From assembly GCA_944390005.1 (NCBI GenBank), contig CALXOJ010000003.1, forward strand, positions 175,329-239,328: a stretch of DNA of 64,000 nt, read 5' to 3'. The number at the start of each line of letters is the position of its first letter. Position 1 is the stretch's first letter. This document shows positions 57,801 to 58,002 of the stretch, in pieces. A model generated the notes under the pieces. The model was not told the DNA's origin and ran no database searches. It was given only the letters and a program-made list of their open reading frames with translations. The translations under genes and the position numbers were made by a program. Source of the DNA: an uncultured Spirochaetota bacterium. GTDB lineage: Bacteria; Spirochaetota; Spirochaetia; JAFGXN01.

Positions 57801-57955
57801 CGAAGGCGCGAGGGATTGAAGCGGAAATGAGAGGCTGACGGAGTGATGGCGAAGGGCAAAGCGGCAGCTTTGCTGCGGATGCAAACAAACGAAGGCCGCG
57901 AATTGCAGCGGAAAGCCCGGTGCGCGCCGCTTGCCGCGGCGCGCACGCGCCCGAA
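57801..57955 (-). repeat. solo copy of the Rpn-element left end (inverted orientation) adjacent to the tRNA cluster
   Basis: The reverse complement of 57801-57955 aligns along ~155 bp with 38282-38455. It includes the terminal GGGCGCGTGCGCGCC (57938-57952 as GGCGCGCACGCGCCC) and the GC hairpin. No Rpn gene follows. Confidence 0.6.
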
Positions 57956-57965
57956 TGGATCGGAG

Positions 57966-57994
57966 AATAAAAAACGCACCCTTTGCGAGTGCGT
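57966..57994 (-). terminator. Rho-independent terminator after tRNA-Arg
   Basis: Minus-strand hairpin ACGCAC-loop-GTGCGT (plus 57974-57994) followed by UUUUUAUU (plus A-run 57966-57973). Confidence 0.5.
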
Positions 57995-58002
57995 TTAAGT
58001 GT

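Follow-up and report, generated by a model that had tools for sequence, protein, structure and literature searches.

A GC-rich sequence beside a spirochaete tRNA-Arg gene is probably one copy of a dispersed, modular palindromic repeat

In a 64,000-nucleotide stretch of DNA from an uncultured Spirochaetota bacterium (the whole stretch analysed, hereafter the window), a GC-rich sequence of 155 bp lies next to the terminator of a tRNA-Pro/tRNA-Arg pair, and a similar sequence begins a composite that carries an rpn gene elsewhere in the window. The original prediction took the tRNA-side copy for the solo end of an Rpn element, left behind after an insertion had decayed or been recombined away, and supposed that the same element may have delivered or rearranged the adjoining FGE genes. 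The locus therefore raises the question of whether this sequence is what remains of one lost insertion or something more general. We believe, with a probability of about 0.65, that positions 57801-57955 are one copy of a module, here called A, which belongs to a family of GC-rich, multi-hairpin, non-coding repeats. On this view the sequence beside tRNA-Arg is probably a fairly ordinary dispersed repeat and not all that remains of an Rpn insertion since lost.

Read as its reverse complement, the interval 57801-57955 can be aligned with 38282-38431 across 156 columns, 86% of them identical (BLAST E 1e-46). The similarity that had been reported is borne out, including the GGGCGCGTGCGCGCC end and the GC hairpin within it, but the alignment stops at 38431 and does not reach 38455, where its end had been placed. 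Exact occurrences of GGGCGCGTGCGCGCC in the window number three, at 38285 (+), 39894 (-) and 57938 (-), and an internal 21-mer, GCAAAGCTGCCGCTTTGCCCT, is found within the window in the two A copies only, with 0 expected. Because the sequence in this region is palindromic and rich in GC, and because the 15-mer end can recur by itself (three or more matches in 3/100 shuffles), one might suspect that low-complexity sequence of this kind matched by chance. The E value over 156 nt, a two-ended pattern with four matches in the window (two A and two B modules) where 0 are expected, and profile matches across loci at E 1e-34 to 1e-42 together refute this, and we give it practically no weight. A terminator was also said to lie just outside both A copies, and our terminator scan recovered both; the T-run of the tRNA-Arg terminator stops ~15 nt short of the outer end of A. 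The trinucleotide TTC, described as a shared outer flank, turned out not to be a flank at all, as TTY precedes GGGCG in 20/22 modules examined (the exceptions are the A modules of L016 and L032); TTY either belongs to the repeat itself or marks a fixed target.

Module A is ~150 nt long (155 at tRNA-Arg) and module B ~100 nt, and a third type, C, is B-like. The ends TTYGGGCGCG...CTCGCGCCTTCG are common to all three, A and B having both the outer end TTYGGGCGCGTGCGCGCC and that inner end in common, and a pyrimidine-rich tract of ~10 nt stands before every module outer end. Each module is a discrete, sharply bounded unit. At tRNA-Arg, A turns its outer end, TTCGGGCGCGTGCGCGCC, towards the terminator. 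In the composite that holds rpn copy 2, the outer ends of A (TTCGGGCGCGTGCGCGCCG) and B (TTTGGGCGCGTGCGCGCCG) lie inverted at 38282 and 39911 and agree at 18/19 nt, and this B also ends inwardly in CTCGCGCCTTCG, so that an inverted copy of the terminus is present at the opposite end. The B module near the left edge of the window is an inverted recurrence of the one at 39811-39911 (85%) with no rpn nearby, has a unit-like fragment at 687-712 on its inner side, and is present in 23/23 strain contigs read. A profile search of the window found no further A or B. Coordinates are collected in Table 1. Two ORFs of ~120 aa, at 38228-38605 (+) and 57529-57888 (-), cross GC-rich modules and are almost certainly spurious.

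Table 1. Modules, rpn cassettes, terminators and tRNA genes in the window
Feature	Position	Strand	Remarks
Single module B	589..686	+	1 nt past stop of TonB-dependent-receptor-like gene
rpn cassette copy 1	33456..34850	+	rpn 33669-34451; ~six 57-bp units; without A or B
Intrinsic terminator after sulfatase gene	38253-38272	+	Terminator scan
Module A, left end of rpn copy 2 composite	38282..38431	+	10 nt past sulfatase terminator
rpn cassette copy 2	38432..39810	+	rpn 38644-39474, TIGR01784/PDDEXK_2
Degenerate inverted unit, copy 2	38432-38485		
Four direct 56-57-bp units, copy 2	39593-39810		
Module B, right end of rpn copy 2	39811..39911	-	Outer end abuts TetR promoter region
tRNA-Pro(cgg)	53883-53955	-	
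Full C module	54005..54141	+	Start of FGE gene 1 leader
Full C module	55692..55828	+	Between FGE genes 1 and 2; tandem repeat unit boundary
Truncated C (B-like) module, T-rich leader	57589..57657	+	Outer end 25 nt from FGE gene 2 stop
Spacer between C and A arms	57658..57800	.	FGE terminator and short motif TGAGAATTGATA
FGE terminator	57754-57777	+	Terminator scan; within C-A spacer
Module A, tRNA-Arg copy	57801..57955	-	BLAST; nhmmer E 2.6e-38
Intrinsic terminator of tRNA-Pro/tRNA-Arg pair	57972-57996	-	Scan; conserved in sister species
tRNA-Arg(tct)	58001-58077	-	
tRNA-Pro(tgg)	58084-58157	-	

The predicted folds take up nearly the whole of each module. For B, 98.5% of cells are paired, against 31-56% in slid controls, and six pairs have changed on both sides, against 2.6 in shuffles, 0/500 of which reach six. 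For A, 95.7% of cells are paired and covariation is found in hairpin 1 only; this hairpin occurs in at least five sequence versions, every one a perfect stem, and is precisely missing from the A variant at L033 and L034 (A'). The hairpins are kept by compensatory substitutions. Pairs in which G-U alternates with G-C or A-U (4/114 and 43/101 in B, 38/153 and 49/59 in A) occur on the outer-to-inner strand only. We considered hairpin 1 as an intrinsic terminator and rejected it, because no T-run follows it on either strand.

Compensatory changes and pairing at almost every position would also be expected if the modules were functional structured RNAs or 3'-UTR elements, read on the outer-to-inner strand and co-directional with the upstream gene, whose hairpins stabilise or insulate transcripts; repetition would then reflect recruitment and not mobility. 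The restriction of G-U exchange to that strand agrees with this, but G-T wobble is equally permitted in single-stranded DNA hairpins. Orientation to the upstream gene is consistent, yet module type and orientation vary after related genes (position 589 of the window compared with L023), and some modules face promoters (TetR, L019 and the A of L032). Some copies begin 1-11 nt past a stop codon with no terminator between, whereas a strong intrinsic terminator separates the gene from both A copies (38282 and 57955). No Rfam 15 family except tRNAs reaches its gathering score, the best sub-threshold matches scoring 19-22 bits against thresholds of 42-80, and the corresponding loci of a sister species lack the modules. 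For these reasons we regard an RNA function as quite improbable, although the modules, if transcribed, would form stable 3'-UTR structures.

Searching 185,579 genomes, one per species, for the two-ended pattern gave 12 exact matches in 10 stretches of one genome, the MAG 'uncultured Spirochaetes bacterium BRZ_BB__bin28', a gut spirochaete. Matches in other genomes were single, mostly in GC-rich genomes, and had no profile similarity; ten such loci in other organisms were set aside as chance matches. Sensitive searches added two A copies in BRZ_BB__bin28, for a count of at least 14 modules in a census that covers ~73 kb of the fragmented MAG plus the window. Two scans of viral contigs gave no match to the two-ended pattern or to an internal 23-mer of A, and profile searches detected neither A nor B in sister-species DNA (43.5 kb) or in the Rpn loci of other species (66.8 kb).

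Among the modules examined, 22/22 are intergenic and 11/22 have their outer end no more than 50 nt behind the 3' end of a gene or tRNA, several of them 1-11 nt past a stop. This agrees with the terminator-proximal placement that had been proposed: module outer ends sit close behind gene 3' ends or terminators. Single A modules were found at L011, L015 (two copies), L023 and L024 and a single B at L028, and at least five A copies and two B copies are without a partner and without rpn. Where modules are paired, their inner ends face each other and their outer ends point outward, with a variable core between that usually holds 57-bp units, each pointing to the inner end next to it. One or two of these cores contain rpn as well, the only repeat-flanked gene seen. 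We observed the following arrangements: A-rpn-units-B in the window (38282-39911), B-core-A of ~600 bp with 57-bp-like units and without rpn at two different loci (L016 and L019), B-37 nt-A at L032, a B-units-A fragment at a contig end (L031), and C'-55 nt-A' upstream of TetR at L033 and L034. No target-site duplication or flanking direct repeat was found at five composites (window copy 2, L016, L019, L032 and L033).

The tRNA-Arg copy can be read in the same terms. The interval 57589-57955 consists of a truncated C, a 143-nt spacer with the FGE terminator, and then A, and it takes up all the DNA that separates the tRNA operon from the convergent FGE gene. The A module there is not the solo end it was taken for, since C faces it in the canonical inverted arrangement (compare L033 and L032). 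We read it as one arm, of type A, of a small pair that lacks rpn, although, as C modules also begin the FGE leaders, the two may face each other by coincidence. The short motif in the spacer, TGAGAATTGATA, is conserved with the C'-A' spacer of L033, where it resembles the core of the 57-bp unit, but the likeness is weak. At this site A is 98-100% identical in five metagenome strains (L001-L005), including the one-FGE strains L002, L003 and L005, and 99% identical in BRZ_BB__bin28 (L025), so it is fixed in six strain assemblies. In a sister species (L066 and L067; Pta 86% identical) the order pta-tRNA-Pro-tRNA-Arg-terminator is conserved and there is no module at the site. The result named as refuting the original prediction, the same sequence present in relatives at this position as part of a conserved non-mobile structure, was thus not what we found, and the module-free sister locus implies that the family expanded after the split of the two species. 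Similarity between the sister species and the window ends ~10 nt past the T-run. As the genes downstream also differ, synteny is broken there and the site does not qualify as a clean empty one.

The link of module A to rpn deserves separate consideration. The products of the two rpn genes in the window score 122 and 108 bits against TIGR01784 (cut-off 52) and 45.7 and 46.1 bits against PF12784 (PDDEXK_2; cut-off 27.4), and by these profile scores the gene inside copy 2 encodes a genuine Rpn-family protein. Rpn proteins have been described as toxic DNA endonucleases with antiphage activity and intragenic antitoxins (PMC10400941). The two cassettes are homologous only from 33456 = 38432, the A/cassette junction, A being absent from copy 1, and at the right end of copy 2 the homology stops at 39815. 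A unit of sequence GCGTTAAAAnCCACCGATTCGCCAAAGAAAnCCACnGCAGnCGAAGCTCAAAATAnT is repeated in tandem at 56-57 bp after both rpn genes (39593-39810 and 34570-34850 in the window) and also occurs without rpn between A and B (L016 3909-4031; L019 6928-7096). The units always point to the inner end of the adjacent module and join it at a shared CGAAG, an orientation and junction that would be much like those of subterminal binding sites. An inverted unit beside A is clear in L016 and L019 only; the one in copy 2 is weak once the 12-nt module end that it shares is discounted.

When metagenome contigs were scanned with the Rpn protein, we found only relatives at 31-37%, from other taxa, and the nearest paralogue loci (46-49% identity, L054-L065, in organisms of 38-49% GC) have no A, B or C modules and no 57-bp units; these loci do not bear on whether modules and rpn are associated. 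In another Spirochaetia MAG (L054, 3942-4118), seven ~22-nt tandem repeats of unrelated sequence (TTCACAGTCTGAAAC) directly follow the gene of a 49%-identity Rpn homologue; tandem repeats downstream of the gene may recur across this clade of Rpn proteins. Five of these loci (L054, L055, L056, L061 and L062) also have repeats with a 12-nt period (GAAGGnnnnGAA) in the 3' coding region of rpn, at ~3637-3725, which encode C-terminal repeats of four amino acids, in agreement with variation described in PMC10400941.

The description of the 155-bp sequence as the end of an Rpn element is right in that A is the left terminal module of the one rpn composite in the window. It does not extend to a sequence specific to Rpn: in the window both A and B are missing from copy 1, in window-like strains copy 1 likewise does not end in A, and tblastn with the Rpn protein found no rpn in the ten 8-kb stretches of BRZ_BB__bin28 around its modules, of which there are at least 14. 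Because assemblies made from short reads break at rpn cassettes, copies that bear rpn are under-sampled, and the lack of rpn beside modules is weaker evidence than it appears.

Could a complete A-rpn-units-B element still have stood beside tRNA-Arg and lost its interior? A does form the left end of an rpn-bearing composite, with outer 19 nt that are an 18/19 inverted repeat of those of B, and the composites at L016 and L019, which have kept both ends and units, resemble rpn-less derivatives. A further A module stands before a copy-1-type rpn in a third genomic context in strain BRZ_SR (L076, sample ERZ24773555). The Rpn protein there is identical to that of copy 1, the first ~45 nt of the cassette are copy-2-like and the remainder copy-1-like. 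On its outer side this A is flanked by the 5' part of a gene for thymidine phosphorylase, and the outer end of A is the exact point from which the contig is homologous to the window; this junction (4556-4800) is either a real recombinant or a metagenome assembly chimera. Contigs carrying EF-G / ORF135, in which we looked for the reciprocal junction, all end at rpn copy 1. The thymidine phosphorylase gene as called at L076 (3245-4762) overlaps A (4639-4788), probably through an over-extended N-terminus.

At the tRNA locus itself, the original prediction correctly stated that neither rpn nor an array of 57-bp repeats follows the A copy. The further claim that an insertion had decayed there found no support, as BLAST and tblastn detect no rpn or 57-bp-array similarity at 57560-57800, where a 12-nt unit-like motif is all that could recall an interior. 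Copy 1 without A and B, the unpaired A and B copies without rpn, and the lack of target-site duplications at the five composites also weigh against a relic, and a module that is 98-100% conserved among strains with its hairpins intact is unlike a decaying remnant. These data are also explained if the element had no rpn when it arrived. We therefore consider the relic explanation doubtful, and a copy of a dispersed repeat remains our preferred reading.

Several known kinds of bacterial repeat are comparable, and we think it likely that the family is a new, species-restricted set of modular palindromic intergenic repeats akin to BIMEs, BOX elements and MITEs. REP/BIME sequences of enterobacteria and pseudomonads are extragenic, GC-rich imperfect palindromes associated with RAYT transposases. 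The modules resemble them in being extragenic, mostly just after the 3' ends of genes, in their conserved GC-rich imperfect palindromes, in mosaics of units in alternating orientation (B-A, C-A, A-units-B), and in having lineage-specific sequence, no target duplications, a role as recombination substrates and a protein gene that is sometimes repeat-flanked. They differ from them in size (100-155 nt with 3-5 hairpins, against single 20-40-nt palindromes in REP), in the accompanying 57-bp direct units, and in that the sole associated protein here is a PD-(D/E)XK Rpn and not an HUH/Y1 RAYT; the copy number of the modules is known only from partial sampling.

BOX elements of Streptococcus pneumoniae are built of boxA-boxB-boxC modules. 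The family shares with them a modular non-coding structure with conserved ends and a variable number of internal units, intergenic location, stable predicted folds, and the lack of an encoded transposase in most copies, but the sequences are unrelated, and the end modules here are mutually inverted with common termini and one member has a protein gene. MITEs, such as the Correia elements of Neisseria and ERIC/IRU, are a third point of reference. The composites at L016, L019, L032, L033 and 57589-57955 of the window are likewise small (~300-620 bp) and non-coding, with terminal inverted repeats (TTYGGGCG termini) at many loci, and resemble internally deleted versions of the longer gene-bearing copy. 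In contrast to MITEs, no target-site duplication was found at the composites, single arms are about as common as pairs, and the presumed autonomous partner encodes no DDE transposase. The gene in the composite is like E. coli Rpn (YhgA-like) in passing both TIGR01784 and PDDEXK_2, but it differs from E. coli rpn genes in being accompanied by element ends, hairpin modules and unit arrays, none of which, to our knowledge, has been defined for those genes.

A family of this kind may have spread within the lineage as a non-autonomous MITE- or BIME-like element, its modules mobilised in trans by an enzyme that recognises the structured ends and leaves no target duplication. What points to mobility is the dispersal of the modules together with the module-free loci of the sister species; every module examined is fixed within the species, and none shows a clean insertion/empty-site polymorphism. 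The best candidate for a mobiliser is the Rpn PD-(D/E)XK nuclease of the full-length member, a tentative assignment that we would not expect to hold. It is rather unlikely that the A and B modules with their inward 57-bp units are the cognate ends and subterminal sites of an Rpn nuclease that moves both full and rpn-less elements. If they are, a protein family that has long carried the label 'putative transposase', but for which no defined ends have been shown, would take part in a partnership of the REP/RAYT kind, and the fall of strain breakpoints precisely on module boundaries would reflect Rpn cleavage of these structures. No account of defined element ends for Rpn is known to us. As a kind of repeat the family is not surprising, and its wider value lies in this link to rpn, namely a composite whose structured, inverted ends enclose the gene, derivatives without rpn, and breakpoints exactly at module edges. 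Should the link prove mechanistic, these loci would provide DNA substrates with which to test Rpn-family nucleases as site- or structure-specific recombinases.

Today the copies may act mainly as portable homology, with module ends marking the breakpoints of strain-specific rearrangements. Upstream of TetR, the outer end of B in the window and that of A' at L033 have the same flank, CGCGCCC|AAAAGAAGAG, and B and the hairpin-less A' end at the same nucleotide before AAAAGAAGAGTCTTG (window 39901-39925, L033 9914-9935). This flank of 11-12 nt also adjoins B at the unrelated locus L019 (6638-6660), and it may represent a preferred target, additional sequence of the element or site-specific breakage.

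The FGE genes next to the tRNA-side copy can be explained in a similar way. The suggestion that the FGE region was delivered by the element does not fit what we observed: strains have one or two FGE genes, each C-flanked, and A is found at tRNA-Arg in one-FGE and two-FGE strains. A C module precedes each FGE gene, and single-copy strains also have C on both sides. A 93-nt stretch is 100% identical at 55668-55760 and 57565-57657 and marks a putative crossover substrate. The leader and N-terminal part (54005-54784 and 55692-56471) are 100% identical while the remainder is 86-88% identical, which indicates a probable recent gene conversion over an older duplication. Judged from these alignments, the pattern fits unequal crossover or gene conversion on C/leader homology, and we infer that the flanking C copies explain the polymorphism of one versus two genes. 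For annotation, recognizing the family is of practical value, as it accounts for spurious GC-rich ORFs, for breaks in assemblies, for variation in the number of FGE genes and for rearrangements between strains.

Two other strain differences in the window are worth recording. L033 and L034 lack the gene for a 503-aa sulfatase (41334-42841) that the window has between its SIMPL and ferredoxin genes. Between rpn copy 1 and the sulfatase gene, L079 (2360-4183) has a 607-aa Flg_new-repeat protein where the window (34785-35741) has an unannotated ORF of 318 aa.
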